A stretch of DNA of 31,567 bases from Catajapyx aquilonaris (taxonomy: Eukaryota): NCBI GenBank assembly GCA_000934665.2, contig KZ538242.1, forward strand, positions 62,001-93,567, given 5' to 3'. Of this stretch, positions 1,017 to 30,394 are shown one piece after another. Position 1 is the stretch's first letter. Each line of letters begins with the position of its first letter. The notes beneath the pieces are model-generated. The model saw only the letters and a list, made by a program, of their open reading frames with translations, did not search any database and was not told where the DNA came from. Both the position numbers and the translations under genes were made by a program.

Positions 1017-3704
1017 ATGTCTCCAGTCACCCTGGAGTCTCTGATGGAAGTGTCTCTTGGCAACAGGAGGCTTCTGGAAGGGTTGATGTCACGAATGGAC
1101 TGGTGCCAGGAGGCCATCGGGAGGGTGGAGGGGTGGATGAAGAAGGAGAAGAAGCGTGGAAGGGAAGGTACGCATGAAGGAGGAACAAGGGTGCGCATCA
1201 GGAATTAATGCGTCTTGCATTCCAGAAGATGCTTCAGGCCAGCTGCTTCCCACCGAGTTTGTTTCCGTCAACATTGGACATGCAGGCAGCGAGTCATTGC
1301 CTGCGTCGTATAATGCTGAAAAAGAAATAAAAGTGGAGGAAGAGGATTGGGGAGTGGAGCAGGTGAGCGCATGAAGGATCACGCACTGATATACTAAAAA
1401 TTGAAAGCACCTGTAACTTAGTCAATTGAATAAAAAGCTTGTTCTTATATTTTTTAGGAGAGCTGTTATAGAGACTTGGAAGCAGAGACAGACAGAAACA
1501 GCTGTGAAATTACTGGAAATGTTAATTCAGAAGGTGGATATTCAGCAAGTATGACAAATTCTTTCCCACATGCATGTTAGAAGGTTTTCAGGACTATTCG
1601 ACATGAAGCCATGCTTTAATATGTGCCAATTGCGGTGTTGTTAATAATTCACCTAATAAGTTTCACATAAGCTGAGCATGAACCTTGACCTCAAAGTTGG
1701 GAAGTATCATTTGGACCAAGTAGGAATGCAGTAACCAAACACTCTTCAAGGGACTGCCCAAAAGTATGCGGGAAAATTGATCAAGGGACCGGAAAAAAGG
1801 GACGTTAAAAAAAGCACTAAATGCGGTAGCGTTATATCAAGGTTTTACTGTATATCGTCAGATGTGGTCAGCACACTTTCGAGTTAATCAGTGGATCTCC
1901 CCTCGGAGTCAAACTAGATGTACAGTCGCCGACATATTGATTGAATCACTTGCGAGCATCATTGCTCTGAATATCCAGGATAACGTTAGAAATCGGCTCG
2001 CAAGTGATTCAATCAATATGTCGGCGACTGTACAGTACTTACACACCTGACCCCCTTTGTGTGCCATCTGACTCAGCCATTTTCATTTGCAGGTGGAGCA
2101 GCTTCCTCACCTGATCTTCCAGTCAATGAAGAAGTCCATCCCCATGTGATTCAAGGATTGCACTTGCTTCACGAGGGAACAATGAAGCAAGAGATGCACA
2201 CTGAGAGTGAATTACGGAGCCAGGTATGGTCATTACTTCATTGCACAGTATTCGTATATTCTAAAAGTGATTTTTAAAAATGATAAGGGGCAAGCTGTTT
2301 CAATTAGGGGCAAGCCATATGTTAATGAAGGCATTAAATAATTTTTCATGTTTTATCAATGAATTTTTTTTTCAGTTTGTTACACTTTTGGAGATATGTT
2401 GTTGAAATTACCTAGAATGCGCCCAAAATTGTTCACATTATTATCCTATGATATATTAAATTCATTTATGACATGCTTGAGAGATAAATAAGTGCACATT
2501 GTTTCCATGAAAAACCGCAGTTGGAAAAAAATTATAATTGCGGAATTAGTACAGAATTGGTTATGAAAATGCGTCTATTGTGGTTACCTCCACACATTTA
2601 TTTGGAAGAAGTGCCTCCTTTTTTTTATGGGAAGAGTAATCTCCATTGATTTGTCATTATTCTTCAGGCCTCTACTTCTGCAAGCTGGAAGAACTCTCAG
2701 TCCATCAAAGTTGAGGCATTTCCATTAGAGGCGAGTGTTTCACATTAAAAAGATAAGGAAGCAGTTTCCTGGAAGTGGTCTGAATAGAACTGATGAGAAC
2801 AAAGAGAAGGAATTGATTGACTACAAGTCTTACTGAATGTTGCAGGTTGATGGAGCGGAAAATGAGGAAGTCAGTGATGTGAATGACTCCAGTGATGAAC
2901 ATGCCCCATCTGCTCAATCGGCTGATGATCCTGGTTGTGGCTCAAGTCGGATAACAAACCAAAAGCGGCAAAGGAAGGTACGCTTGTTTTAGTGTTAAGT
3001 TAATCAATGCCAAATCTAATTGCAGGAATTGCATTTTTTTTTTTGCACAACTTTAACACCTGCTTTACTTTTGAATTTTTTTGTAGCGCAAGAAACTACT
3101 GCAGCCAACTGAAACAGATGGTCCAAACAACACTGATCGGAACTGTGGGATTTCTTGTGCTTTGGAAATGGTTAAAGGAAAGAAATGGCATCAGTGTGAT
3201 CAATGCTCGTATAAGACTCAAGACACTGCAAACTTCAACAGGCATAAAGTTGTTCACGGAAGTGACCAAAAGCCTTTTGGTTGCGATGCATGTGAAAAGC
3301 GATTTAAGTCAAACCACGCCATGAAATTGCATTATAAGGCTGTCCATCTTGGTGTTACACCTTTTACTTGTGAAGTGTGCGATAAAAAGTTCCGTGGGAA
3401 GAGGAATTTGGAGGAGCACATGATGATCCACGCTGGCAAGAAGCAGCATTCATGTCAAGTGTGCAAAAAAACTTTTACGCTAGCCCGACATTTGAATTAT
3501 CACATGCAACTTCACACCGGAGAAAGAGAGTTACACTCTTGCTCCGTTTGTGGCAAAGGGTTCGGGTCCAAATCCGAAGTGGTCATACATATGAGGGTCC
3601 ACACTGGCGAGAAGCCCTATTGTTGCGACATTTGCCAGAAGAAGTATGCTAATCGCACTACCTTCCTTCGTCACAAGAAAATCCACACGGGACAAGGAAC
3701 CTGA
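1017..3704 (+). CDS. Gene 1: conserved N-terminal helical domain plus 6x C2H2 zinc-finger protein (about 440 aa, 7 exons)
   Basis: Exons 1017-1167, 1226-1362, 1458-1548, 2093-2223, 2668-2730 (GC donor), 2846-2977 and 3087-3704 join in frame (phases 1,0,1,0,0,0). The last exon has six C-x2-C-x12-H-x3/4-H fingers with TGEKP-like linkers. AATAAA at 3782. Confidence 0.88.
1729..1850. mobile_element. Degenerate pogo/Tigger-like MITE remnant
   Basis: Right end cgttatatcaaggttttactg-TA resembles a Tigger-type TIR; the left end (cagtaacc) is decayed. Confidence 0.4.
1923..2030. mobile_element. Tc1/mariner-type MITE (108 bp) in gene 1 intron 3
   Basis: Perfect 35-bp TIR cagtcgccgacatattgattgaatcacttgcgagc; TA on both flanks. 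Confidence 0.85.
3087..3704 (+). CDS. Gene 1 terminal exon, six C2H2 zinc fingers
   Basis: Acceptor ttttttgtag at 3086 is in frame with ORF 3162-3704 (HQCDQC...HKKIH). Confidence 0.92.
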   Translation, partial: RKKLLQPTETDGPNNTDRNCGISCALEMVKGKKWHQCDQCSYKTQDTANFNRHKVVHGSDQKPFGCDACEKRFKSNHAMKLHYKAVHLGVTPFTCEVCDKKFRGKRNLEEHMMIHAGKKQHSCQVCKKTFTLARHLNYHMQLHTGERELHSCSVCGKGFGSKSEVVIHMRVHTGEKPYCCDICQKKYANRTTFLRHKKIHTGQGT

Positions 3705-3707
3705 GGT

Positions 3708-4815
3708 ATCGTATGATTCAACTAAGATTCTCCTGAATTGCGCTGAACACGCTGTACAATATTTGGTAATAATTTTACAACAATAAATCAATAATTATGA
3801 CCCTGAAAAATGACACCAGTGGGAACGTACCCGACGTTTTGAATAGATTCTGAAGCGGCGACAGCAACACACCCTTAAGGAATTCCAAGATGGCGGCCGT
3901 GCAATGCATTTAGAAGCCTGCTGATTAACTTTCCATCGCATTTCCAGCTAGTTTGGTCCCCCTTCCTGCACTTTCCAACTCGCTTCTGGTTTAGCCTCAT
4001 CTGGTCTTCCCTTACCAACATCAGAATCAGGACTGAGGACTCTAGACTTGAAGCAATGGCTGCTCCAGTCACCCTGGAGTTTCTGATGGAAGTGTCTCTA
4101 GGCAACAGGAGGCTTCTGGAAGGGTTGATGTCACGGATGGACTGGTGCCAGGAGGCCATCGGGAGGGTGGAGGGGTGGATGAAGGAAAGTGGTAAGCAAG
4201 ATGAGGTTGGAAGGTTCCGCAAGATCTGCTATATAATAATCCAATTTTTCACGGCAACAGGAGCTAATTGACATACTTGTTTGCATGAGATTTAATTTCT
4301 TATTCAATTTCAGATGTCGCTTCAAGAAAGTTGCATCCCAGAGAGTTTGTAGCTGTCGACATTCAGGATAGAAGCGGTCGGATGTCGGACGGTAATATCA
4401 AAGTGGAACCGGAGGTTTGGGCACCAGAGCAGGTGATTAAAGCTGGAGTAATTGTGTACAATGGATGCTACACAGAAACTACTGCACTTGCATAATTTTA
4501 CTGTTCTGGAACGCAATGCATAAGTCAATTTTAAATAACTTGGAGCAATGTTTCGTTATGTGCCGTACCATCTAATGATTTCAATTGAAAATTGTAAGAT
4601 TGTGTCAGTTCAAAACTTTCACAAGTAGCTTAGTTGATCAATTTCTGGTTTTTCAATTTTTTGTCTCTTATTTTACAGGACACATTGAATGATGACCTGG
4701 AAGCGGAAACGGCTAAAAACATCAGTGAACTTTCAACCTTCATGAGTTGTGCATGTGCAGAAGTTGACAGTTTGGCTAGTGCAAGTAAGATTTAATGGAA
4801 AACGCAATGATTACA
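3708..4815 (+). repeat. Recent segmental duplication, matches about 6143-7230
   Basis: Promoter, exons 1-3 and introns are nearly identical by eye between genes 2 and 3. Confidence 0.9.
3821..3897 (+). promoter_or_regulatory. Gene 2 core promoter with YY1/Pho-type motif
   Basis: GGAACGTACCC, then CAAGATGGCGGC at 3886-3897. Confidence 0.6.
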
Positions 4816-6041
4816 GTTGAAAGGAGCTTGAGTAGTGCAGCCTTGCAATGAATATTTATGCATCCCATGTGATACTGGACATTGCAAATGCAGTAGAACC
4901 CCAATTATCCGACTCCTCGGTTTATCCGACCGTCCTGCTCCAGCAATAAATGTATGGTATCTCATCAAACACTAATGCAGGCCTACTGACAGTACTAAGC
5001 ATTTGTTTTGTACTGTATTGCCTTAACATTTTAAACAGTAGAGTGTGTATGTAAAAGATAAATGCTTCCCTAATTGTAAAAGATAAATACTTCGCTATTG
5101 TTTAGAAAACCGTATTATTGTACGAGTATAATGTCATTCTTTCAAATATTTTTTGTTGTTTCATAAAACTTTCCTTTGCTTCTCGGATTATCCGACCTTC
5201 TCGGTCATCCGACGATGCCCCAATCCCGTGGGTGACACATAATCGGGGTTCTACTCTACAGTACCATATTTGACGGCGTATAAGACACTTTTCCCCCCCA
5301 AAAAATGGTCCAAAAAAATCGTATTTCAGAAGTTGCTTCAGGCCAGTCCCTTCCCACCGAGATTGTTTTTGTCAACACTGGAGATGAACGCAACGAGTCA
5401 ATGCCTGCGTGTGACATTGAAACGGAAATAAAAGTGGAGGAAGAGGACTGGGGGGCAGACAAGGTGAGGACAAGGCACATAGGCTGATAGACTTTAAAAA
5501 TCAAAAGGTGCCAGTAACCTTGTTAGTCAATCGAATTAAATGTGTTGTTATTTTTTAGGTCAGATGTTATAGAGACTTGGAGGCAGAGACAGCCAAGAAC
5601 ATCAGTGAAATTGTTGAAATTGTCGGCAGTGTCGATTCAGCAGGTAGGGCACTTTCTTTATTGTGTCACTTGCATGTTAGAAGGTGTGCAGGCTAACTGG
5701 AAATGAAACCATGCTTTAATAAGTGCAACAAAAGTGTCATGAAGTACATGCAGTTTTGATTCCAAGTAGCTATGTACCAAATGAAGGGAGATGAAGAAAG
5801 AGAGCTGGAAGAAGCATGTGCATCAAGGAGGAAAGTCGTGCCCAGTCCCAGCCAACAGAAGAAGTGTATAAGAAGCCAAATGCACCTTCCCAAGATGATG
5901 AAAGACAAAAATGCCAGCCGCTGCCGAAAGAAAGGGTGCAAGGGGCGGTCTAGGGTGCAGTGTGATTGTTGCCACTTGTATTTTTGTGTTGTTTCGGAGC
6001 GCAACTGTTTTAAAGCATATCATTTATCCCTCTGTAAGTAA
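4056..6041 (+). CDS. Gene 2: chimeric family member ending in a piggyBac transposase C-terminal cysteine-rich domain (about 283 aa, 6 exons)
   Basis: Exons 4056-4191, 4314-4432, 4679-4784 (near-copies of gene 3 exons 1-3), 5330-5463, 5559-5643 (paralogs of gene 1 exons 2-3) and 5770(or 5767)-6041 all join in frame without stops. AATAAA at 6079. Confidence 0.65.
4891..5256. mobile_element. pogo/Tigger-like MITE in gene 2 intron 3
   Basis: TIRs cagtagaaccccaattat / ataatcggggttctactc; internal ttatccgac repeats at both ends; TA on the right flank. Confidence 0.75.
5770..6041 (+). CDS. piggyBac/PGBD-type transposase C-terminal Cys-rich (zinc-binding) domain exon
   Basis: HLP...RCRKKGCKGRSRVQCDCCHLYFCVVSERNCFKAYH gives C-x4-C-x7-C-x2-C-x4-C-x6-C-x4-H with the RNCF motif typical of PGBD C-termini. 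No DDD catalytic core is present. Tandem AAG/TAG acceptors both give phase 1. Confidence 0.75.
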
Positions 6042-6243
6042 TGTGTGTTTTTTTTGATATTATTTTGTTAGAGAGGTAAATAAATTTATTTTATTTTCTG
6101 CTTATGTTGTACTTTGCTGCTAGTATTGCAATCAGTATTGGCATCATATGATTCAACTAATATTAATTTCTGATTGCCCTGTGCAATTTGGTAATCATTT
6201 TATTATAATAATCAATAATATGACCCTGAAAAATGACACCAGT

Positions 6244-6320
6244 AGGAACGTACCCGACGTTTTGAATAGATTTTGAAGCGGCGACAGCAACACACCCTTA
6301 AGGAATTCCAAGATGGCGGC
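6244..6320 (+). promoter_or_regulatory. Gene 3 core promoter with YY1/Pho-type motif
   Basis: GGAACGTACCC, then CAAGATGGCGGC at 6309-6320. Confidence 0.6.
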
Positions 6321-6480
6321 CGTGCAATGCCTTTAGAAGCCTGTTGATCAACTTTCCCTCACATTTCAAGCTAGTTTGGTCCCCCTTCCTGCACTTTCCA
6401 ACTCGCTTCTGGTTTAGCCTCATCTGGTCTTCCCTTACCAACATCAGAATCCGGACTGAGGACTCCAGAGGCTTGAAGAA

Positions 6481-8297
6481 ATGGCTGCTCCAGTCACCCT
6501 GGAGTCTCTGATGGAAGTGTCTCTAGGCAACAGGAGGCTTCTGGAAGGATTGATGTCACGAATGGACTGGTGTCAGGAGGCCATCGGGAGGGTGGAGGGG
6601 TGGATGAAGAAAAGTGGTAAGCAAGATGAGGTTGGAAGGTTCCGCAAGATCTGCTATAATAATCCTATTTTTCACAGCAACAGGAGCTAATTGACATACT
6701 TGTTTGCATGAGATTTAATTTCTTATTCAATTTCAGATGTAGCTTCAAGCAAGTTGTATCCCAGAGAGTTTGTAGCTGTCGACATTCAGGATAGAAGCGG
6801 TCAGATGTCGGACGGTAATATCAAAGTGGAACCTGAGGATTGGGAGCCGGAGCAGGTGATTAAAGCTGGAGTAATTGTGTACAATGGATGCTACACAAAA
6901 ACTTGCGTAATTTTGCTGTTCTGCAACGCAATGCATAAGTCAATTTTTAAATAACTTGGAGCAATGTTTCGTTATGTGCCGTACCATCTAATGATTACAA
7001 TTGAAAATTGTAAGATTGTGACAGTTCATAACTTTCACAAGTGGCTAAGTTGATCAATTTCTGGTTTTTCAATTTTTTGGTCTCTTATTTTACAGGACAC
7101 ATTGAATGATGACATGGAAGCGGAAACGGCTAAAAACATCAGTGAAATTTCAACCTTCATGAGTTGTGCACGTGCAGAAGTTGACAGTTTGGCTAGTGCA
7201 AGTAAGATGATGGAAAATGCAATGATTACAGCAATGTGGTATTAAAGTATTGCATCCCTCTTCAGGTGAGGAATCTTCCACACACATCCATAGTGCAATC
7301 GAGTCTGAGCAAATGCCTCCGCACTCTTCACATATTCAGAAACCTGAACTCGGAGATGGTATAAAACCTGAGGTATAACGAAGACCTCCTATTATGATTG
7401 CAAACTGGAAAATATCCAACCAATTTTCAGAATAATGATGCCCAACCAAGCGCATTAGAGGACAAACGCATCCCATCGGATCACATGCAAGATGACTCTG
7501 ATGAAGTCACGAATGGGAGTGGAAAAAGACGCAGGAAAGAAAAGGTATGCTTGTTAATTTTACAGTCAGGTTTCACTACATCAGCTTTTCTATCTCCAAC
7601 TGGTGAAGAATTTTCTGTTCGATCAACCTGTGAGCATCTGGTTACGTTCTTGTTGCGTTAAAGTGGAATTATTTTCTAGGGAAGGCCCAAAGTGCAGGCA
7701 ACAGACCAACAGAATGATGACCAAGAGGCTTCTAGTAGCATGGACAAGGAGGAAACTGTACAGATGAAGAGGAATGAGAAAGGCATGTTCCAGTGCAGCA
7801 TATGTTCGTACCAGTCGTACCACATTTCGACAATCAAGAGGCATGAAACGACCCACAACAACGAGAAGCCCTACTGTTGCAGCATTTGTGAAAAAAAGTT
7901 TTCCTTGAAGAGTGCGTTCATGCGGCATTTCCGTACCGTCCATCTCGATAATAAGCCTTTCTCTTGCGACATATGCAACAAGAAATTTGCCAGGCGGGAC
8001 AGAATGGAGGAGCACAGGAGGATTCACACTGGCGAGAGGCCACATGCATGCAAAGTGTGCAACAAAACCTACGTTTCGCTAAATCACTTGAAGATTCACA
8101 TGATTACGCATAAGGATAAGACAGACGCACACACTTGCACCCATTGCGGCAGAGCATTTCAAGCCAAACGTGACATGGTTGTCCACATGAGGACGCACAC
8201 AGGTGAGAAGCCCTTCTGTTGTGACATATGCCAGAAAAGGTTCACTCGCCGTAATATAATGAATCATCACAGGAGACGCCAGCACGCAGGAGAATGA
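6481..8297 (+). CDS. Gene 3: N-terminal helical domain plus 6x C2H2 zinc-finger protein (about 399 aa, 6 exons)
   Basis: Exons 6481-6616, 6737-6855, 7096-7201, 7266-7372, 7431-7544 and 7680-8297 are in frame with canonical GT-AG introns; six fingers in the last exon. Confidence 0.9.
7680..8297 (+). CDS. Gene 3 terminal exon, six C2H2 zinc fingers
   Basis: Acceptor attttctag at 7679 is in frame with ORF 7692-8297. Confidence 0.92.
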   Translation, partial: GRPKVQATDQQNDDQEASSSMDKEETVQMKRNEKGMFQCSICSYQSYHISTIKRHETTHNNEKPYCCSICEKKFSLKSAFMRHFRTVHLDNKPFSCDICNKKFARRDRMEEHRRIHTGERPHACKVCNKTYVSLNHLKIHMITHKDKTDAHTCTHCGRAFQAKRDMVVHMRTHTGEKPFCCDICQKRFTRRNIMNHHRRRQHAGE

Positions 8298-9598: not shown

Positions 9599-11505
9599 AT
9601 GTCTCCGGTAACTCTGGAGTCTCTGATGGAAGTCTCTCTAGGCAACAGGAGGCTTCTGGAATTGTTGGTCTCCAGGATGGACTGGTGTCAGGAGGCCATC
9701 GGAAGGATGGAGGGGTGGATGAAGCAGCATGGATGGGAACAGCCAGAAGGTGAGGTTCCGCAAGACTAGCGGAAATGTAAAAAATGGACATGCTGCGGAA
9801 CGGTGTGTAAATCTTGTCAATTTCAGATGCTGCATCAAGCATGAGCCTTCCCGAAGAAGTAAACCCTACCTGCCTTGATGGTGAAAGTGGCAGTCCAATG
9901 CCTGCATGTTATATCAAAGTGGAAAAAGAGGAGATTGATTCAGAGCAGGTGAAAATAAAATCTTTAGCAATTACGTACATTCTGTCCAAAGCATGCAAAG
10001 GTCCAGGCTGAACGTGACTTTGACAACATTGCACAAGATGTGGAAACCTCGACTATGTTACGGAATTTCTTAACGTATCCAATTTTTTCCCCCCCAGGAG
10101 ACGTGGAATCCTGCCTTGGAAGCAGAAATGAGCGGAAACATCAGCCTTTTAAGCCATGCAGATGAGGCAGTTGGGAATTTAGCAAACGCAAGTAAGGTTA
10201 CATCACTTGCGCAATTCTACGAAAGTCATTTGAGTCCATGGAGACAGCTAATACGAATAGAACCATAATATTTAGATGGTAGCAATGTTTATGGCTTTCA
10301 ATTCAAGTTTTTCTTTTGTCGTGTCTCAATAGGCAAGGAAGAATCCTTTGTACCTTCGCATAGTGAAAGCCGGCATCAGGAGGTCTTTGCGCTCTCATCA
10401 CATCAAGAGGGAGCTTTCCTCCAGGAAGATGAACTCATGGACAGTACAAACTTCCAGGTACGAGAAAACTACACCTTTTATTTCCATTTCAATGTGACTG
10501 TTTGCCAATCTACTTTCAGCAGGGTGAGATTGACGTGTCCGAAACAGAAGACGCCCCAGCTGATCATACGCACACTGAATCTGGTGACGGCATGCTTGGG
10601 AGAGGAAATCAAAATAAACCAGGGAAGGTATACATGCCAATCTTTTGCATGAAATATGATTCATCAAAATAATGTCGTAAGTCTTGTCATAACCATAGTT
10701 ACTAATAATTAACTATGGTTATGACAAGACTTACGAGTTAATTATATTAGTAACTATGGTTACTACCAGTTACGGCAAAAATTTGACTGACGACATTTGA
10801 TGAATCCACCACCAGTATATTAAAAATAAAAATAATTATTGTTCAGGAATTTTGCAACTTTTGCTCTGGTGTTTTAGTAATTTTTTGCACAACATTTGGC
10901 AACAATGCCTGCACTTTGCAGTTCAACATTTTGCCCTTATTTTGCATTCATCAAGCCTGTACGGTGCTTTGTATTTTTTTTTTGTATCCCTTTTGAAGCA
11001 AATTCGGACTTTAGAAGAGCGTCTGCACCTCATACGAGAAGTGGAGACCAACCCGTGGGAGAAGCTGACTGACATATCCAAGCGACTAGGCCTTCCATCA
11101 TCAACGCTACGTTCAATCATGGCAAGGAAAAGGGAGACCAAGCAGCAGGCAGAAAAGTGCGGCTCATCCGCCACGAAAAGGAAGAACAGCAAGCAGTCGA
11201 CTTACGGCGCGTTGGAAAGGGTCCTCTTTCCCTGGTATCAGCAGGCCCTCGCATCAGGCATTCCCGTCAACGGCAACATGGTGCGGGAAAAAGCGCTGGA
11301 AATAGCCGCAACAATGGGGATACACAATTTTTCTGCATCAAACGGGTGGATCTGCCGGTTCAAGCATCGTCACGGACTCATGTCTTATAAGTCGGGCGCG
11401 GACAGTGCTGCGGTGGACGTTGAACCGCCGGACTGTTCAGACTCCCTTCAATTGCAAGGAGAAACTTATTCCAGATGGAAATGTACCGAGGAGGAACCTA
11501 ATTAA
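9599..11505 (+). CDS. Gene 4: N-terminal helical domain fused to a pogo/Tigger (CENP-B-type) transposase DNA-binding domain (about 368 aa, 6 exons)
   Basis: Exons 9599-9749, 9827-9948, 10098-10191, 10333-10457, 10520-10627 and 10999-11505 are in frame. The last exon encodes a psq-like HTH (TLEERLHLIREVE...ISKRLGLPSSTLRSI) plus a CENP-B HTH (LERVLFPWYQQ...IPVNGNMVREKALEIA...FSASNGWICRFKHRHGL). AATAAA near 11545. Confidence 0.85.
10658..10806. repeat. Nested inverted repeat or fold-back MITE in gene 4 last intron
   Basis: Perfect 27-bp arms at 10675-10701 and 10710-10736; inverted copy of the centre at 10737-10762; outer arms gattcatcaaa..atgtcgt / acgacatttgatgaatc. Confidence 0.75.
10999..11505 (+). 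CDS. Gene 4 terminal exon: CENP-B/Tigger-type double helix-turn-helix, no DDE domain
   Basis: Phase-0 acceptor cccttttgaag at 10998; motifs as above; the ORF stops before any catalytic domain. Confidence 0.88.
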   Translation, partial: QIRTLEERLHLIREVETNPWEKLTDISKRLGLPSSTLRSIMARKRETKQQAEKCGSSATKRKNSKQSTYGALERVLFPWYQQALASGIPVNGNMVREKALEIAATMGIHNFSASNGWICRFKHRHGLMSYKSGADSAAVDVEPPDCSDSLQLQGETYSRWKCTEEEPN

Positions 11506-11583
11506 TATTGTAAGTTTTGTACCTCTTTTTTTTTCTCTCTCTTCAATAAAATTTTAAACAGCCCGCCTTCTAATAACACCCGT

Positions 11584-13999: not shown

Positions 14000-14709
14000 T
14001 CCCGTCTGCACGGCCCCATTAATTACTTGAGAGACCATGCCCATTTCATGTCACGGCAAGCTCTTAACAATAAGAAAATCAGTTGGCCTTGCGTGGCTGT
14101 CATGTGGGAGCCCAAGTCAATTGCTTCTTTTTTGACAATGACTTTGGGGATTCGCGATTGTCTGCTCTCTTCACCACAGGTTTCGACAAAACCATAGCAG
14201 AGCATGTAAATAGGTGTGAATTGTCAATTTACAGTGTGTGTTTGAATGTCATGCTTCGGCATAGGCCAAATTTTATTATTGCGGTGGGTTGTGTGTCACT
14301 GGAAAAAGGTGTGGGTTTTTTTTTTGTGTGTATATTATGATCGCAACTTGTGGCACAGGCCTTCCACGGCTGTTTTTTTGATAATTTAAAACAGTCATGA
14401 GCATGTATTGCCGACTTAATAAAAGGAGAGATAAATCCATGTATTGGCACAGATTATTACATAATTTACATGGCATTGCCAAATCCTAAACCACATCCTA
14501 TTTATTCCAATGCAAAATAATGATTATATAGTTGCATTGTCACATACGTGAAGCTATCAAAATTTAAGAAAGCAGACATCATACGCCTTTGTATTGTTGA
14601 AAGTAGGAGGCGATGGTCCAGCTACTATAGACAGTGTACATATTTCTCGGGGAAATACTTTTAAGGGATATGAAGTGATTGTGAATTGACATTCCGTTCA
14701 TCACGCCAG

Positions 14710-15167
14710 AGAGGAAGAGGAATGACTTGACCTTGGCCGACAAAGTAAAGGTCATCCAGATGCTCGACTTTCGTCCGAAGATGTCCCAGGCTGAAATCGC
14801 AAAGAAGTTCGGCTGCTCCCAGTCGCAAGTGTGCAGAGCCCACAAGAACAGGGAGGCCATCATGCAGCAGTGGGGCACAAATGGGAATCCAAACCGCAAG
14901 AGGAAGCGAGAGGGCAAGGATGGAGAAGTTGGAGACGCTCTTCTTCAGTGGTTTATGGAAACTGGAGGAAAGTCTGTACATTTGACTGGTCCCGTATTGA
15001 TGGAAAAGGCCAGATCCTTAGCAGTCAGCCTAGGCGATCCGGATTTCAAACCAAGCGAAGGCTGGCTGAGCAGGTGGAAGGAGCGGAACAATCTTGTGTT
15101 CAGAAGAGTACATGGTGCCAGAAAAGACTGTGGGACCTTCTCATCTGGGATTGACTCTGCCAGATAA
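14710..15167 (+). CDS. Orphan CENP-B/Tigger-type double-HTH exon, probably an alternative terminal exon
   Basis: Encodes xRKRNDLTLADKVKVI...SQAEIAKKFGCSQSQVCR...LLQWF...LTGPVLMEKARSLA...FKPSEGWLSRWKERNNL. There is an in-frame TGA at about 14682 with no ATG before the domain. Acceptor ttccgttcatcacgccag at 14709 (phase 1). AATAAA at about 15363. No DDE domain. Confidence 0.78.
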
Positions 15168-19063: not shown

Positions 19064-20319
19064 AAAGCATGACGACAGTTTCTGTACCGGAAGCTCATTT
19101 AAAGGAGCAGATGATCGACCTTCGACTTACAGTCCCATATTTATTGAGAGTAACTTGGACTACTATTATTTGCACCAAGTACAACATAAAATTAAAATGT
19201 GTAATGACATCTCAAAAGGAAGAACTGTTTGGTCAGTACGATTTTTATGTACGAAAAATCAACATTGCTCTATAACTGTGATGTTTAGCCACCGTGTGAT
19301 ACACTGTCAATTTTAAAGATTTTTGAGACATGCATTTTGCAGATATTATGTCACACACTCTCACCAGCAACTATTCCGTCCGTTCTAAGTCCCCATATCG
19401 CCTTTCATGCCAAAATTTATTGGCAAAATGTTGTGACTGTACTGTATGTGTATACTGCATTAATTAGATTTTCTTACTATGTATTGTGATTTCCAATTGT
19501 ATTTTTTAAGAGTCAGCTAGTCATATGATATCAAAAAATTTCGCAAAGGTTGTTAAATGCATTTAATTCGATTTTCTTGCAATGTACTGTGTGGTTTCTG
19601 ATATTGTATTTTTAAGTAAGCTAGTCATGTGATCAAAAAAATTGCACCGATTTTTCCACAGTTTTGTTAAATGTGTGAAGTCACAACCCACCGAAGACAG
19701 TCGAGTGTGAAGTCACTGTGTTATTAGCTTAGTTTGAGTAAAATTTATGCTAATTACAACTCACCCCTGTAATGGTGCCTTAAAAATGTTTTAGTGCCAT
19801 ACATGACAACGTGGGTTTTCTAATGTTAAGTCACAGCCAATGCTTCAGGTTAATTGCAGGAGTGAGTGGTATTTAGGATTCGTCTTTATTGATAAAGATG
19901 TGAGCTCATTTATGAGACATACGGCGTATTCATGAGTTTTTTTGGGGGGTGCTCTTTGATGTAGCTACCTGGATTCGAGTTACTTAATTATGGAAAAAAA
20001 AAATTGCAGTGAAAATAAATCGCGAGGTTAGGTGTCGAAATTGTGCATTCTTCCATTCCATCTCGATAATGACATGTGAAGTATGTCCTTCAAAATTGTG
20101 AATCCATGTAGTTGTGATGGTGTGCAGGGCACTTCTTTTCTCCAACTCCAAAATTTCCCAAATTACTGGTTTTCGAAGTGGGCGGGGATCAGCAGCGGGA
20201 GGGGGAGAAGGGATGAGGGAGACTCCACTGCTAAACTGCTTTCAGAGGCCAGACATGTAGCAGAAGGAGCAGTCGTATTGAAATAGAAGAGACGGCTACT
20301 GCCCATGTAACGCAGCTCT

Positions 20320-23300
20320 ATGGCGGCCTTGAAGGAATGGGCCAGGGGTAGCAGGTGTGGAGCTGAACAGGGTGAGTTTTTAGGGGATGTAAACACACCT
20401 ATATGTGACATGTAAATGAGAGAATCAATTGACTGGAATGTGGTTTTCCTCTTCAGTTGCAGTTGCAGACTGTCCTTCTGAAGCCCTCACTGCAGTCAAA
20501 GCCGAAGGGGAAAGTATAGATTTCATGCCGGCAGGCAGCGTCAAAGTTATTGAATCGGTCCAGTGCAAGACGGAGGAGATCACAGTGGAGGATGAAGGCC
20601 CATATGGAATTGATAGTTTGGTGGGGATGACATTGCACATTTATAGGGTCAGAAGGTCAAATGAAATGGCAGGATCAAAAATGAAAGGGGTGGGAAATGT
20701 TGATGTTGCAAATGGGGTCGTATCTTTGAAACGATTTGTGCATTACATAACTATGTGTGCACAGAGTATTACAAAATTTGTGGTGATTCAAAATCACTTG
20801 CATCATCTGAAGTCACAGTTTTCCCTTTGATAATAATGGTAGTTATAGGGATGAAGAGTCACATGAACACATCACAGCTTGCATCACAGTTTTCTTGATA
20901 TTGCTGTTTAAAGACACGTTTACATGTGAGAGATTTGATCAGCGAACAGCGATGTTGCAGTGATGACATCTCTGAACACAAGTAACGATAGATGTAACCA
21001 TATATTTTTAGCCCTAAACAATTAGTCTCATCGCTGATCAAATCGCTTGCATGTTAATGCAGCTTAAGATTGATATTAAATGTTGTTAGTTGGACAGTAA
21101 CATGTTTCCCCCTTGTCATGGCAGAGTCAAGACTTGGAAGCCAACGAAGCCAAAATATCCAGAAACATCAGTGAAATTGCTGCTCTCTTGAGTGGTTCAG
21201 ACATAGAAGATGCCTGTTTGGCAAATGCAGGTATGATTATGATGTTTATTCATATGTTAATGAAGGCTTCTGTTTTAATGAGTGCAGAATTAAAATCTCT
21301 GAACTAGAAGTGGGGGAATAGGTGGCAGAAATCTTCAGCAGAATATCGATCCTAATGGTTTAATGTTGCAGCATAGTAGTGTGACCTGAGCGGCTAGGAA
21401 CACACACAAAACAGAAGTCAGTGGGTACGGTTAAAGACAGACAGTTTATTCGGTTTCAGTAGGTCACCAAAATATGGAGGAAGAAGGATAGCAGGGTTAG
21501 GGAAGGTAGTCGGGAGTGACCAGTCATCCAGGATACTCTCCTAGAGAATGGCCTAGAGGCCCCTGCGTTGCGTGCTTAAATAGTGGTGCAAACGCAATGC
21601 GAGATGGGAACAGCAGACTGGTGACATCACGTGACCAGTCGGGGTGCAAGTACATTGAGCACAAAATAATGGGACCATGTACAAAAGACATGTCCAAAAT
21701 AAAATGGTCACAGTAGTAGCCTACTGTACAGGCAGCTAAATATTTTTCTTGTATATTAGAACAAGAGTAAATAAAACTTGCAAATTCCTGCATTCTTTAC
21801 TTGAAGGTTTCTGGAACTGCATTTCTTTGTGGCCTCCACTTTTATTTATTCTTTAAATTATTTGAAGACGTACTGTGCTATGCCATTGCATTTTCACAGG
21901 TGGAGAAGCAGCCTCCACATCTGGAAATCCTCAAGAATCTCGCGGACTCTCCACACTTGATGGAGGAAACGCTGAGGAGGAAGAAGACCTTGGAAGCACA
22001 GACAGTACTATAGTATGTGATATATTATTTTTGTTTCAAATTGATAATATCAAGAAGGGTGGGGAATCTGTTGGATGGCAGTCGATATTGCGGTGGTGAG
22101 CTGCAGATTTTAATCATGTTCATTTCATTAATTGTTAGTGTTAACAAATAGCATGTGGTGGCATGCGAACATGTTCCTGGAGGCCTGCAAGCCAAAGATT
22201 GAAGATTTCTCAGATCTAGGCCCTCCCCATCACATTCTCATGATGCACCTCTGAGCTGCAATGTTATTCTGTGTCGTAGGTCGCTACTTCTGAAGACTCA
22301 GACAACCCTAAACCAGGTGAGGGTGACAGCGTTCCATCCGCATCAGCTGACCCATCAATTGCACAAGCAAGCAGTCCAAGCAGGAGGAGGAGGACGACGA
22401 AGAAACAAGTTCTTGTAAGTAACATTCTGACAGAAAAGGGGAGCAATGTCTTATCCACTTGTAATGAGCACATTTTCTGGAAACACCGAGAATCTTCCAT
22501 GATTCTTTAAATATTAAAATTAGTACTCTGTTACACAGTATTTTCTCAGTAATTTGCAATAATGTCACAGAATTATTGACAGGTAGCAGTACCAAATTTG
22601 TAACCTTTCCCAAAGATACTTAAACATCGCTTTTGCTTACAACCAACCAGAAAATTTATTGTAGGTTTTTAGTTATTTACAACACTTGAGTAGCATTTTA
22701 AATGCTCTATGATCTGGTGAAGTCCATTTAGTCCTGCAGATTCATAATCGAAGTCAGGAATTTCTGTCTTCACTAGGGTTGCCGGATGTCTGGTTTTGAG
22801 CCAAACAGTCCGCCATTTGAGCGATTTTGTCCGGTAGAATATTTGAGGAAATACACTTTTTCAATGCCTACGCAAAGCCTTCTGCATTCCACATGCTTAT
22901 AGTGCACACTACTGCATACTGATTAATGAAACTATCCATAAAATGCGAAATTAGCGCACCGGAAAATTATGCAGGACCAAAATCAAATCCATATTATTAT
23001 CATCTGCCGTCTCCTTATTGCCAAATACGCCTGGAATGTTATTTACATACAATAATTATTAACAATTTGTTAAGAAGTTAAGCAGTGAAGAATATTAATG
23101 AGTGTAATATATTAGGCATTCTTGGCCACTGATTTCACATATTTCAGGCTCCGGTGCACAAGGACTTGGCTGATTCGAGTGACTCTGATCACTCAAAAGA
23201 GAATGGTTGTGCTGCCTTGATGAGGCGGAGGAAGAAGGGAAAAGGAAAGGTTTGTATTGCTAAATGACTGACCATTTCTGACCCTCTTCAGGGCATTGGT

Positions 23301-24388
23301 AGGACTCAATGAATCTTCCTACATTACTTTGGGAGGATTCAACTGTTATACCTACTAATATTTGCCATTACACTAAAAGAAGCTATTAAAAAGTAAGCTG
23401 GTTATGGGGAAAAAATTGATGACTATTTGTGACAATGCAATGGGAACACTTCAAATCTTGTTGGTTTGTGTAATGAAAAATTGTGCCTTGATGATTTCAG
23501 ATTATTCAGATTTCCTATCCTAGATGTACCTGAGCTGCAATATGATTCTATGTCGTAGGTCGCTGATTCTGAAGTTCCAGACAACAACCCTAAACCAGGT
23601 GAGGGTGACACCCTTCCATCAGCATCAGCTGGCCCATCAATTGCACAAGCAAGCAGTACAAGCACGAGGTGGAGGACGTGGGAGAAACAACTTCTTGTAA
23701 GTAATATTCTGGCAGAAAATAAGGAGAGCATTTTCTTATCCACTTGTAATGAGCAGATTTTCTGGCAACACTGAGAATCTTGCATGATTCTTGACCCATC
23801 CATGGGAAGGTGCAGTGTCGGTGGGGAGTTTCTGACCCGCACCTAGGGATTGTCTCGCAATCTGACCCCCTGGGGGACTGCACAGGACCCCCAACATAAA
23901 GACAACATACTTGCACCAGTGTCCCCTCCTCGCAAATCCCTATCCTGACATGGCACAGCTAAAATCATATTGGATAAATAAAGCAGTGAATGTCATATTG
24001 GGTTTCATGTAATTTTTTATTCGATTGGATTTTAAAAGACTAAGTTGTTTTTGACGGCGTATTTTATTTGTAGTAATGGTGAATTATTTTTTTGAAGGAA
24101 AACTGTGTAATGCAAGCAGCTGGAAAAAATACTTCAACGAGATTACCCGCTGGATACTTTCATGAGGATGGTACAATGTCAGATGTGGGCATGACAAGAA
24201 ATCTGACACCAAGGGAGACGACAAATCACCGGATTCGAGAAAGATTGACTGGTCAGGTGAAACTTACATCTGATGATAGGGAGTGGTGGGATCAGCTAAA
24301 CGAAAAATTAGCTGCGCTAGCAGCTAATCCTCCAACTGAAGACATTGAGTGCCCTAAGTCGCACATGCTAAGCAGTTGGACAGTTTAG
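20320..24388 (+). pseudogene. Gene 7: rearranged duplicate of gene 8 (5'-damaged, zinc-finger exon absent); pseudogene or truncated gene
   Basis: Exons 20320-20371, 20457-20620, 21125-21230, 21900-22012, 22280-22414, 23148-23249, duplicated exon 23559-23696 and candidate last exon 24098-24388 are in frame. In-frame TAA at 20308 lies upstream of MAALKEWARG. No YY1-type promoter motif seen. Homology with gene 8 ends at about 23370, just before the zinc-finger exon. Confidence 0.6.
21380..21712 (-). mobile_element. Solo LTR (333 bp), Gypsy-like
   Basis: TGTGACC...GGTCACA termini; 4-bp GTAG duplication; minus-strand TATTTAAG and AATAAA in LTR order; absent from the homologous intron of gene 8. 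Confidence 0.82.
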
Positions 24389-25769: not shown

Positions 25770-28700
25770 ATGTCCCCCACCGAGGAGAACCCTCCCCTCC
25801 TGGAGGCCCGCCTGGAAGGGATCGTGTCCCGACTGGTCTCCCTGGAGGAGGACATGGCTGCCCTGAAGGAGTGGGCCAGGGGCTGCAGGAGGTGTGGGGC
25901 TGGACGGGGTGGGTTGCTAGGGGGGACCACCCTTAGAATGATGTAAACACTCTCTGGGATGTGCTTCTTTCTCCTCTTCAGCTGCAGGCCAAGGCCATCC
26001 AGGCCACCCTCCTCCTGAAGGCCTCTCTCCTTCAGGCGGGGCTGGTGGAGACTCGGTCGCTGCTGTGGGGAGCATCAAGACAGAGTGGGGCCAGTGCAAG
26101 GAGGAGGAGGAGGTCACGGTGGAGGAGGAAGGCCCGCAAGGAATTATTGGCGGTTGGGTGAGGATGAGATTGCATGTTGGTGAGGTCAGGAGGTCAAATG
26201 AAATGGCAGGATCAAAAATGAAAGGGGTGTGAAATGTGATGCTGCAAATGGGGTTGTATTTCTGAAACTATTTGTGTATTACATAACTAGGTGTACACAG
26301 AGTATTAGAAAATTTGTCGTGATTCAAAATCACATGCATCATCTGAAGTCACACTTTTGCTCTTTGATAATAATGGTTTTAGGGATGGAGAGTCACATGA
26401 ACACATCACAGTTCTCTTGAAATTTCTGTTTAAAGCCATGATTACATGGTAGCGATTTGATCAGCGATGTTGCAGCAATGACATGACTGAGCAAAAGAAA
26501 CAATAGAGGTAACAATATATATTCGCCCCAAACAATTGGTTACATTGCTCACCGCTCTCATGTAAACGCAGCTTAAAGCTGATATGAAATATTGTTAGTT
26601 GGACCGTAACATGTTTCCCCCTTGTCATGGCAGAGTCAAGACTTGGAAGCCAACGAAGCCAGAATATCCAGAAACATCAGTGAAATTGCTGCTCTCTTGA
26701 GTGGTTCAGACACTGACAATGGCAGCTGGGCAAATGCAGGTATGATTACGATCCTTATTCATATATTAATGAAGGCCTTGGTCGTAGACTGTGCAGATTT
26801 TTAATCTAAGTAGAAGTGGGGCGATGGGTGACAGAAAACTTCAGCAGAACATTAGTCCGATTGTTTTAAAGTTGCAGCATAATTGTACTCTACAGTGTTG
26901 CACATTAATCGAGTCATACTGCTAGTGACATTTTCTGAAGCGGCAGAAGAACGAATCGAAGATATGGAACTAGCAAGCCGTGCGATCAAGATTCGTTCTT
27001 CTGCCGCTTCGGAAAGTGTCGCTAGCAGTATGACTCGATTAATGTCCAACACTGTACAACCAACAGGTATTGTGTGCATTACATTGGAGCTGTCCATCCG
27101 TCTAGCAGGGGGCCAGGCACGTGAAGGTCTCCCAATATCAAAATTAATACTATCAATCTCCACTCACAAGGGAACGGTACTTGTTGGAAGTTGAGTAGCC
27201 CTATGCAACTGGACATAGGGAAATCATCCATTTGGTTAATTCGAAAAGTGAAGTCCATTGTGGCTGAGATGCAAGAGTTTATGAGATAATGGCTTCTTAA
27301 GTTACCTATTGCAGCTGACACGGTGGTGGTATTTCCCAGGATAGGTAGTTCTGGTATAGAAAATATCTATCATCTATCAGTCAAATGGACTGTGTTGACC
27401 GCAACACTGCAACCTCTTCAATGCCATTTACCAGCCCCCTGCATCTCATACGATACTGTAGTGTAATATAAAAGTCTCCGTCCGCGGCACTGGCGCATCC
27501 CCACAGGGATCTTCTGGTTCGGGCGGACACTCGCTGACGCCTTAACCAATCCGAACCATTCTTTCCACTGCATCTGGGTCCGGAGGGCATTCGCAGATCG
27601 CCAGTCAGCCAAGCGAACCGCAAGATACCTGTGGGGCCATGCCAGCGCCAAATTTTAGGCTTGGGGAGACTTTTATATTAAACAACCGTCACCACAGGGC
27701 TAGATATTTTCTGCATTCTTTACGTGAAAGTTACTGGAACTGCATTGCATTGTGGCCTTTACTTTTAATTATTCTTTAAATTATTTGAAGTAGTACAGTA
27801 CTGTTCCATTGCATTTTCACAGGTAGAGAAGCAGCCTCCGCATCTGGAAATCCTCAACAAGAATGTCACAGACTCTCCACACTTGATGGAGGAAACTCTG
27901 AGCAAGATGAAGGACTCGGAAGCAGAGAAATTACTTTAATACATGTGTGAAATATTATTTTTGTTTCAAATGGATAATATCAAGTAGAGTGGGGAGTCTG
28001 TTGGATGGCAGTGGATATTGCGGTAGTCAGCTGCAGGTTTTAATCATGTTCATTTCATTCATTGTTAGTGTTAACAAATAACGTGATGGCATGTGAACAT
28101 GTTCCTGCAAGCCATATACAGTATTGAAGATTTCTCAGATCTAGGCCCTCTCTATCACATTATCAGGATGCATTTATGGATGCACCTCAGGATGCACCTC
28201 TGAGCTGCAATATTATTCTATGTCATAGGTCGCTGCTTCTGAAGTCTCATACAACCCTGAACCAGAGGAGGGTGATAGCCTTCCTCCCCCATCAGCTGAC
28301 CCATCAATTGCTCAAGCAAGCGGTCCAAGCAGGAGGATGAGGACGAGGAGGAAACAAGTTCTCGTAAGTAACATTCTGGCAGAAAAGGGGTGCATTTTCT
28401 TGTCCACTTGTAATGACCACATTTTCTGGCAACACTGGGAATCTTGCATGCTTCTTTAAATATTAAAATAAGTACTCTGTTATACAGAATTATCTCGGTA
28501 ATTTGCAATAATGTCACAGAATTATTGACAGGTAGTAATGTCAAATTTGTACACCTTTCCCAAGATTCTGTGCAATTAGCTCACCAGAAAGTTATGCAGG
28601 ACCAAAATAAAATCAGTAATTATATCCTGCCGTCTCCTTCTTCTTGATGTTATTCACATACAATAATTATTATCAATTTGTTAAGAAGTTAAGCAGTGAA

Positions 28701-29553
28701 GAATTAATGAGTGTAATTAGGCATTCTTGACCACTGATTTCACATATATCAGGCTCCTGATCACAAGGACACAGATGACAGTGGGCAGTCCCTGGCTGAT
28801 TCGAGTGATTCTGGGGATGAGCATATACCTCCAAGTCGCTCAAAAGGAAATGGCCATGCAGCCTTGAAGAGGAAGAGAAAGAAGCGAAATGGAAAGGTAG
28901 GTATTGCTAAATGACTGACCTTTTCTCACCCTCTTCACTTCAGGGCATTGGCAGAACTCAAGGAATCTTCATACATTACTTTGGGGGAATTCAACCGTTC
29001 TACATACTAATATTTGCCATTGCCTGATAAGCCATATCCGTGCAGTGATTGTGATAAGAGGTATATTACAAAGTGGGGGTTACAAAGGCATTGCAAGGAT
29101 GTCCATCTTGGTGTTAAGCCTTACTCATGTGACATGTGTGATAGGAAATTTCCTAGGAAGTCTCACATGGTTGTTCACAGGAGGAGTCACACAGGAGAAA
29201 GGCCATTCCAGTGTGAATGGTGCGAAAAATGTTTTTCTTCAAGTTCTCATTACCACGTTCATGTTCGGGGTCACAAGGGATTGAAACCATTTCATTGCAC
29301 CATTTGTGGCAAAAGATTTTTTCGGTCAGCACACTTCCACCGGCACATGTTAATTCACTCAGGTGAGAAGCCTTTTGAATGTACCACTTGTGGGAAAAGA
29401 TTTGGTCGGTCAGAAGTCTTACACCAGCACATGTTAATTCACTCAGGTGAGAAGCCTTTGGAATGTAGCACTTGTAGGAAAAGATTTAGTCGGTTAGGAG
29501 ACTTACACCGGCACATGTTAATTCACTCAGGTGAGAAGCCGTTTAACTCTTAA
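25770..29553 (+). CDS. Gene 8: N-terminal coiled coil plus 6x C2H2 zinc fingers (about 447 aa, 7 exons); seventh finger cut off by a transposon
   Basis: Exons 25770-25908, 25982-26157, 26634-26739, 27823-27944 (weak donor), 28229-28363, 28753-28896 and 29032-29553. A TACTAAT branch point at about 29005 precedes the AAG acceptor at 29031, giving ...RNGK|PYPCSDC. Confidence 0.75.
26893..27054. mobile_element. Tc1/mariner-type MITE (162 bp) in gene 8 intron 3
   Basis: Near-perfect TIRs of about 65 bp, cagtgttg...gaacgaatc; TA on both flanks. Confidence 0.85.
27464..27680. mobile_element. Unclassified MITE with bipartite inverted repeats
   Basis: taatataaaagtctcc / ggagacttttatatta outer arms plus inner imperfect arms ccccacagggatcttctggttcg / cgaaccgcaagatacctgtgggg. 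Confidence 0.65.
29032..29553 (+). CDS. Gene 8 terminal exon, six C2H2 zinc fingers
   Basis: ORF 29014-29553; the stop codon is supplied by the inserted element. Confidence 0.9.
   Translation, partial: PYPCSDCDKRYITKWGLQRHCKDVHLGVKPYSCDMCDRKFPRKSHMVVHRRSHTGERPFQCEWCEKCFSSSSHYHVHVRGHKGLKPFHCTICGKRFFRSAHFHRHMLIHSGEKPFECTTCGKRFGRSEVLHQHMLIHSGEKPLECSTCRKRFSRLGDLHRHMLIHSGEKPFNS
29290..29541 (+). repeat. 84-bp tandem repeat (three recently duplicated zinc fingers)
   Basis: cacatgttaattcactcaggtgagaagcc is repeated exactly three times at 84-bp spacing. Confidence 0.9.
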
Positions 29554-30320
29554 CTAGTAAGGTGGGGTCATTTTTGACCCCAAGCTTGCGGAAATTAGCA
29601 CTGTCAAATAACTGGTTAATCAAGAGCCAAAAGCTTCCAGGTATTCCTTGATCACATCTTTGTTTATGTGTTAATAACCTTTAAATTTTTCAAAAAAATT
29701 TAATAGCGGTCCAAAAACGGCTATAACAAAGGTGATGTGCGGCTGGGGTCAAAAATGACCCCACCTTACTAGTTACGTTTGGATTCCTCATTGTTCTTGG
29801 ATTCATGCCTGCCAGTGAAAAGCTTCTATTTTTTTTGCGTCAAACGGTGGCATGGCATGTACTAATGGCAAACCTGTCATAGATGATGCAATAATAATAA
29901 AAATTTGTAAATTGTTTCACATATGGGTTTGGCCTGCGCTCTCTATACTTATACAATGTCATATAGCCGTTATTTTGAAAGTATGACTTGTATGGCATTT
30001 AATGTAGAGGACCTATCATCATCATTTGGGGCTTTATATAGAGAAAGCGTATTTATGAATTGTTAGCATTGGCGGCTGCTACTGAGGTATCTTTAATTAT
30101 AAGCAGTTGACGTCTATTTGCATAGCTATCACACTTAGTAACGTGACCTATAAGTTTCTTTTATTACCTACTCATCGTACATAATGTAAACTTAATTTAC
30201 ATGGCTTTAAATTTTAAATTTTATGAATTCGAGATCAAATATAATTCAATTACCACGTGGGGTCAAAAATGACCCCACCTTACCAGTTGCGTTGCTCGAG
30301 TTCAGCTTACTAGTTAAGGG
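29547..30320. mobile_element. Non-autonomous piggyBac-type DNA transposon (774 bp)
   Basis: TTAA duplicated at 29543-29546 and 30321-30324. TIRs ctcttaactagtaag / cttactagttaaggg (1 mismatch). Subterminal GGGGTCA-(A/T)n-TGACCCC palindromes at about 29564, 29745 and 30259. No ORF. Confidence 0.92.
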
Positions 30321-30394
30321 TTAAATGCAATTTTTGTGGCAAACAGTTCAAGAACAAAGGAAACATGTGGAGACATGCCAAACAAAAGCATTAG
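30321..30394 (+). pseudogene. Detached seventh zinc finger of gene 8
   Basis: Removing 29547-30324 restores GEKP-FKCNFCGKQFKNKGNMWRHAKQKH-TAG in frame. Confidence 0.88.

Follow-up and report, generated by a model that had tools for sequence, protein, structure and literature searches.

Capture of transposase sequence by zinc-finger genes is documented mainly in tetrapod KRAB genes, and usually much of the transposase was taken. Here we describe a gene of Catajapyx aquilonaris, gene 2, which lies at 4056..6041 of the stretch of 31,567 nucleotides analysed in this study (hereafter the window). Gene 2 shows the structure of a host-transposase fusion: a separate exon, read in frame with the host exons, encodes the transposase domain, and its acceptor comes from the transposon. 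For such fusions in tetrapods, the consulted part of the study by Cosby et al. (bioRxiv 10.1101/2020.05.07.082677) describes loss of the parental transcript over time. As outlined in the available accounts of KRABINER, a transposon in a zinc-finger gene provides a splice acceptor and a DNA-binding domain behind host N-terminal exons, and gene 2 resembles it in this respect. However, in KRABINER a KRAB domain is followed by the full-length transposase of a mariner element, whereas gene 2 has about 90 C-terminal residues, with the AG inside the transposase frame. It also differs from KRABINER in that its N-terminal module has no database relatives, its array is of an invertebrate type and its function is putative.

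A piggyBac-derived last exon is also found in CSB-PGBD3, which, in the sections of PMC3459987 consulted, keeps the whole transposase and the element, while in gene 2 the catalytic core and the element ends are gone. The targets reported there for CSB-PGBD3 are the ~140-bp MER85 elements, in which a palindrome lies 3 bp internal to the terminal repeat. The Cys-rich domain of piggyBac transposases has been studied in three cases that bear on gene 2. The T. ni piggyBac domain binds DNA in isolation (PMC5861402). The piggyBat domain (9C0F) binds a palindrome as a pair, and the pairing occurs via the transposase dimer (PMC11707139); the last exon of gene 2 is like this domain in its His-first arrangement, a putative cross-brace, and its basic character, but the dimer is absent in gene 2. 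The PiggyMac domain (6ZOP) has the same ligand arrangement but is acidic (pI 5.48), unlike the basic domain of gene 2, and binds histone H3 and not DNA; its authors consider the substrate not predictable from the fold (PMC8086355).

The host family can be compared with the cyprinid FiNZ-ZNF genes (PMC10547256), which are likewise restricted to one lineage, bear fingers and start with a short, conserved exon that matches no known family. The likeness is one of kind; the lineage is a different one, and the consulted part of that article describes no transposase exon. A survey of transposon-derived factors (PMC10027918) lists CENPB-type domains and, by a count of the term, never mentions piggyBac. 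At the level of titles and abstract openings, supplements aside, the literature yielded no array of this sort that had taken up just the Cys-rich domain, although the fusion table of Cosby et al. might hold a case with the C-terminus alone. As judged from its sequence, gene 2 is a variant of the known kind of transposase capture, with a putative function.

The zinc-finger gene array and the anatomy of gene 2

The window forms the final 31.6 kb of contig C433 in a genome of 285.6 Mb. Its introns and C2H2 arrays, together with Atlas neighbours that come mostly from arthropods, point to an arthropod. A scan of this contig revealed 21 tandem copies of the family N-terminal exon, and at least 50 matches to it were found genome-wide. 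The unit on C433 consists of the N-terminal exon, an acidic IKVE exon, a DLEAET exon and usually a C2H2 exon. The N-terminal module matched no Pfam family, and a word-index protein search among longer proteins, which carries little weight as evidence, returned no relatives. A profile search gave four matches, none of which was retained as a relative: three were low-complexity repeats and were discarded, and the fourth was a protein of 4745 aa matched in 20 short stretches. On this basis the module appears to be without a credible relative. A homodimer prediction for it scored 0.07 and was counted neither way.

Several departures from the regular unit were seen in the family. A second member with IKVE and DLEAET twice lies at C433:58743-61900, and the acceptor AG of its second IKVE copy is apparently gone. 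On C3166 (L039:5247-9717), the N-IKVE-DLE unit occurs four times in tandem with no finger exon between the units. Apart from these, 20200-24000 and 25770-28900 of the window constitute a diverged duplicate gene pair with 84-91% identity, and a third partial copy lies near 23580.

Gene 2 was modelled on the forward strand, like genes 1, 3 and 4, as six GT-AG exons in a single open frame encoding 284 aa (acceptor 5767) or 283 aa (acceptor 5770). Exon 1 (4056..4191) encodes the N-terminal module of ~45 aa, and exons 2 (4314..4432) and 3 (4679..4784) encode an acidic IKVE module and a DLEAET module, both of the gene 3 type. Exon 4 (5330..5463), whose acceptor is modest (91st percentile of AGs), comes from an older member of the family and encodes IKVE a second time, and exon 5 (5559..5643), with a strong acceptor, encodes a second DLEAET module. 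The first-pass annotation had noted both the double occurrence of these modules and a NAGNAG acceptor at the last exon, and both were found. Exon 6 (5767..6041) is a piggyBac C-terminus reached via a cryptic acceptor, and the tandem acceptor AAG/TAG at its start has both AGs in frame. These acceptors, at 5767 and 5770, score weakly: they stand at the 75th-78th percentile of all AGs, where the weakest 3 of 21 real acceptors also fall. A strongly scoring AG at 5681 was rejected as a competitor, as it lies out of frame, is also present in the introns of paralogs and would make the intron 37 nt long. The likely poly(A) signal is the AATAAA at 6079..6084, the sole A(A/T)TAAA within 6041-6240. The IKVE+DLE pair is a phase 1-1 cassette, and skipping of exons 2-3 is likewise in frame. 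The in-frame junction of exons 3 and 4 is therefore automatic and was not taken as evidence.

Three of the five sequencing runs listed were compared with the window: X1 and X2, which are DNA from one sample and possibly the source of the assembly, and X5, from another sample and another study. The DNA is continuous across the last exon, as 5573-6303 was found as a single 731-nt contig in X1 and in X2 with no differences. The behaviour of two contigs suggests that X5 is spliced RNA. One of them, record 21, starts two bases before the gene 3 acceptor at 7680 and has 103 letters left over. In the bin 7398-7758 the observed X5 depth was 2.84, and the expected depth is 2.84 if spliced and 1.25 if unspliced. 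Because the observed value is reproduced only with the leftover letters on the upstream exon, X5 behaves as spliced RNA. The other contig, record 20, covers 5765-6002 with no differences and has 11 leftover letters at its left; records 8 and 13 served to check the orientation. With CAG at the end of exon 5 and AAG at that of the intron, a 5643/5767 splice fits the start at 5765 exactly, and splicing at 5770 instead would add one mismatch.

Splicing at 5767 is strongly suggested by these data, with a putative partner exon for the 11-letter overhang. As both acceptors are weak, it is the RNA contig that carries the case for the splicing of exon 6. Of the two junctions that the first-pass annotation had singled out for reads, the one at the last exon has an X5 contig that breaks at the 5767 acceptor, but 4784/5330 was not seen among the contigs listed. 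X5 cover is absent on 4149-4870 and likewise on 6315-7397 of gene 3, and was not counted as evidence. We infer the exon 3/4 splice, the protein, its DNA binding and targets, and any benefit that it may bring.

The two halves of gene 2 have different ages. The stretch 3705-4816 matches 6140-7231 at 92.7%, and exons 1-3 are confirmed to be a young copy of those of gene 3 (6481..8297; last exon C2H2, 7680-8297, with an X5 contig at the 7680 acceptor). Promoter and introns together differ at 21/622 positions (11/264, 2/120 and 8/238), and the introns are 2-3% diverged. The 11/264 mismatches are those of the promoter and 5' leader of gene 2 (3791..4055), a copy of 6215-6480 of gene 3. The first 75 aligned bases, where 6140-6214 faces the tail of gene 1, have 13/75 mismatches (17% vs 21/622; p=1e-5). 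Because divergence rises in these bases, the young copy of the 5' half of gene 3 begins near 3790. Intron 3 contains a MITE-like multicopy insert (4885..5259) on the older side of the join, with at least 43 other matches, of which the longest are 68-77% identical (40 of the 489 candidates were scored). As these values indicate an old repeat, the join was placed between 4816, the approximate end of the young copy, and 4885. The gene had been proposed to be newborn, which applies to the 5' join alone; the piggyBac piece has no near copy, has lost its ends and is possibly much older. A short piece at 5260-5322, which may resemble a pogo/Tigger end, abuts the exon 4 acceptor, of whose original sequence only ~8 nt remain.

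Exons 4-5 had been described as older paralogs of gene 1 exons 2-3. They are indeed family paralogs, but gene 1 is not especially close (31st of 35 by identity). It is also not their sister in a poorly supported tree, and was rejected as their specific source. The tree comprised 36 genes with both pieces, after seven exon-4 matches lacking a nearby exon-5 match had been dropped; in it exons 4-5 stand on their own terminal branch of ~0.10, and inner support is weak. The sequence downstream of gene 2 does match the 3' flank of gene 1, as claimed: the match, at 6140-6240, is the sole one among ten contig stretches. Its first part, 6140..6214, is what remains of a 3' UTR of the gene 1 type, and the AATAAA is gone from it. 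The 3' UTR of gene 1 itself (3705..3801, AATAAA at 3782, X5 contig 3508-3801) is the older paralog of this tail, from which the tail is 17% diverged. Because this stretch is an older 3' UTR relic, it marks where a finger exon once ended, near 6140-6214, in support of the view that the piggyBac piece sits in a former finger-exon slot. At the gene 1 acceptor 2846, an X5 contig (2733-2951) crosses unspliced, which may reflect intron retention or a longer exon.

The last exon and its Cys-rich domain

The identification of the last exon as a piggyBac C-terminus was confirmed by its alignment with a remnant on C3389 that bears PF13843 (E 8.5e-9) and has 63% DNA identity to 5723-5956. Other relatives of exon 6 carry PF13843 with E values of 6.6e-12 and 3e-9. 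A DNA search of the genome with exon 6 returned one match, which was exon 6 itself, and at the protein level there were 33 other genomic matches, the best of them 50-53% identical. The C3389 alignment runs from 5723-5727 on, and the paralogous similarity of intron 5 stops at 5726. The start of the piggyBac piece (5723..5766) is now intronic and has a TGA in the transposase frame. Acceptor 5767 is a cryptic AG ~40 nt inside this piece, i.e., it is supplied by the transposon; the transposase frame is interrupted by a stop within the 13 codons that precede the acceptor, while the 91 codons that follow are free of stops. The catalytic core and the terminal repeats with TTAA are missing, and an intact piggyBac element was rejected. 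No terminal-end pattern of piggyBac was found within 900 nt downstream of the captured piece.

The Cys-rich core of exon 6 (5883..6023; pI 9.6) has the pattern H-x12-C-x4-C-x7-C-x2-C-x4-C-x6-C-x4-H, with eight putative Zn ligands. All of these are intact (H39, C52, C57, C65, C68, C73, C80 and H85), and an upstream His is followed by seven Cys/His. By the definition given in the consulted part of PMC8086355, this pattern assigns the domain to the piggyBat/PiggyMac (His-first) type. The T. ni piggyBac type was rejected because the pattern differs from the CxxC-CxxC-CxxH-CxxC motif. A predicted model of exon 6 had a pLDDT of 87-92 over residues 41-80, and fold searches with this model placed piggyBat 9C0F (510-570) first in both cases, with modest scores (Z 4.7, rmsd 2.6, 52 aligned residues, 21% identity; Foldseek E 0.17). 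The Z score of 4.7 lies within 1 Z of C1 domains, and PiggyMac reached Z 2.8.

The Pfam search that had been proposed as a check did not return zf-Tnp_2 (PF13842); the sole match was Transp_Tc5_C at E 0.016, below the cut-off. In the two nearest Atlas clusters (score 0.94-0.95), PF13842 occurs in 14% and 29% of the members. The PDB gave no matches by sequence, either for exon 6 or for a 10-sequence profile, and a word-index protein search with exon 6 among longer proteins also gave none, the latter being weak evidence. The premise that the Cys-rich domain binds terminal repeats holds for T. ni piggyBac and piggyBat but fails for PiggyMac, which is His-first and shows no DNA binding. The basic pI of 9.6 favours DNA as the putative partner of the exon 6 domain.

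Other captured pieces and candidate targets

Sixteen of the 21 genes on C433 have a finger exon and five do not. Four of the five finger-less genes end in a transposase DNA-binding-type piece, in sense and in frame, a count that is partly circular because three of the queries were derived from those genes. None of the 16 finger-bearing genes has a transposase piece ahead of the finger exon. The four captured pieces on C433 are three piggyBac tails and one pogo helix-turn-helix (HTH). The latter is the last exon (10999..11505) of gene 4, which starts at 9599; here a pogo/CENP-B HTH stands in place of fingers, with PF03221 and PF04218 above the cut-off, the model is in frame and X5 contigs lie on 11143-11534. 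A four-exon family gene at C433:28226-29770 (L019:6226-7770) has an in-frame Cys-rich end of the T. ni piggyBac type, and its exon at C433:29426 carries CxxC-CxxC-CxxH-CxxC, with no Pfam match and Atlas scores of 0.92-0.93.

The third piggyBac tail, the end of the gene at C433:36822, is of the piggyBat type and 46% identical to exon 6, and has kept the right end and the TTAA. It belongs to one 5'-truncated piggyBac insertion found at the same site in three paralogs (C433:36822-39657; C3658:20486-14300, reverse strand; C2250:25900-30800). The Cys-rich frame is open only in the C433:36822 copy, which has no finger exon, and is broken in the two paralogs that retain the finger exon (intact in one, broken in the other). 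These three copies hint that the frame may be kept where the finger exon is lost. A second pogo/CENP-B HTH frame lies at 14685-15167 of the window, behind the finger exon of gene 5 and ahead of gene 6. When the 141 non-host frames of at least 72 aa in the first 82 kb of C433 were scanned against Pfam, excluding frames that overlap host exons, the scan found transposase families in four of them (two above the cut-off) and no further captured piece.

A TTAA-flanked, multicopy, non-coding element of 780 bp at 29545..30324 had been proposed as the target of gene 2. This element lies at the very end of the C2H2 exon 29011-29553 and has dozens of copies (~87-96%). The proposal was not borne out, as the element has no significant sequence in common with the captured piece and its ends differ from those of domain-class elements. 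Right ends are retained in 5 of the 14 flanks of the exon 6 domain class (three separate insertions), all of them of the form AGGAGG-TTAA, and the palindrome of the 29545-30324 element occurs in none of these ends. The AGGAGG-TTAA-type end has 180 occurrences in the genome (control, 0), largely in elements of ~130 bp. These piggyBac MITEs have CCTCCTGAGACC-type ends and, three bases internal to the terminal repeat, a palindrome of 18 bp (10 short ones were examined), a layout like that of MER85 as given in the consulted part of PMC3459987. As a near-identical palindrome is present in the shared insertion on C2250 and on C3658, the ~130-bp elements suit the gene at C433:36822. For exon 6, the ends of the donor family were not found in the assembly, hence no cognate target can be named. 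No transposase of the 29545-30324 family was found in four distant relatives, and four longer elements of the other end class contain no intact transposase.

Origin of gene 2 and competing readings

The chimeric nature of gene 2 holds, and the first-pass observation as a whole is partly confirmed and its interpretation partly supported. With a probability of about 0.55, we consider gene 2 to be an expressed host-transposase fusion formed in two steps, which likely recognises short palindromes lying within the termini of its own class of piggyBac elements. In the first step, a piggyBac element would have inserted into a member of the zinc-finger array. Deletions would then have removed the catalytic core, the element ends and the downstream host exons, including the fingers, and splicing would have adopted the cryptic AG in the transposase frame, giving a terminal exon that encodes the Cys-rich domain and is followed by a separate poly(A) signal. 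In the second, recent step, the promoter and first exon would have been replaced by a copy of the gene 3 promoter and exons 1-3, either by conversion or by an unequal exchange, with its end point in intron 3 and a doubling of the acidic linker. We infer that the first step preceded the second. The product would start with the family N-terminal module, continue in a long acidic linker and close with a single basic zinc module of the piggyBat type. Most likely, it would correspond to its finger-bearing siblings with the address label swapped, bringing along whatever the N-terminal module recruits.

Alternatively, gene 2 may be transcribed debris, i.e., a decaying finger-less member spliced into a piggyBac remnant at whichever usable AG lies closest, with any protein lacking a selected role. 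We regard this as doubtful but worth weighing seriously. The weak acceptors at 5767/5770 and the existence of truncated and broken members in the array agree with it, as does the finding that pN between exons 1-3 and gene 3 (10/285) equals the divergence of the introns (10/358; p=0.65), while the excess of pS (7/75) has a p value of no less than 0.06. The genome also has many open Cys-rich remnants, since 22 of the 33 other exon 6 matches have no stop inside, and six of nine aligned relatives retain all eight ligands. The chance that a neutral exon 6 would keep its frame and ligands is 21% at 3% divergence, but it falls to 0.5% at 10%. The branch of exons 4-5 is ~0.10 long, although that branch does not date the insertion. 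Debris is also harder to reconcile with the presence, in four of the five finger-less genes, of a transposase piece in the vacated last-exon slot, in sense and in frame.

An improbable reading is that gene 2 yields a shorter transcript in which exon 1 is joined to exon 4, as in the layout of the older gene, and/or that its domain reads histone tails, so that the product would be a chromatin adaptor or a dominant-negative sink that ties up the partners of the family. The exon 1 to exon 4 junction would be in frame, no RNA was seen over exons 2-3 among the X5 contigs listed, and the His/Cys arrangement is that of PiggyMac. However, the splice sites of exons 2-3 are intact, like those of gene 3, the exon 6 domain is basic where PiggyMac is acidic (pI 9.6 vs 5.48), and each of the fold searches ranked piggyBat ahead of PiggyMac (Z 4.7 vs 2.8).

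An assembly artefact, in which exons 1-3 are a gene 3 allele misjoined in tandem across the intron 3 repeat, is very improbable: although no contig among those listed from X1, X2 and X5 bridges 4816-5330, and X1 and X2 share one sample that may underlie the assembly, the depth over exons 1-3 is close to that of single-copy sequence in either copy (29 and 44 on 4510-4870, 25 and 22 on 6676-7036; unique contigs, 21-39), a 318-nt contig fits the gene 2 copy with one difference, the 731-nt contig recurs in X1 and X2, and the longest matches of the intron 3 repeat are at most 77% alike.

Beyond the two-step fusion proposed for gene 2, we suggest tentatively that the array as a whole could be an invertebrate miniature of KRAB-transposase capture, in which a lineage-specific N-terminal effector is repeatedly re-addressed by swaps of fingers for bare transposase recognition domains and the products silence or mark the ends of donor families and their MITEs. 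If this is true, three unrelated piggyBac tails, covering both fold types, and one pogo HTH would have been captured within 45 kb. The trio of paralogs around C433:36822 would preserve the path from intronic insertion to finger loss, with the ~130-bp palindrome MITEs as ready targets. Repeated replacement of finger arrays by bare Cys-rich domains would further mean that capture is general and that a 50-residue module is sufficient. The array would thereby supply, as natural and isolated domains, the two piggyBac folds, the His-first type among them, on which the question of DNA or histone binding could be tested directly.
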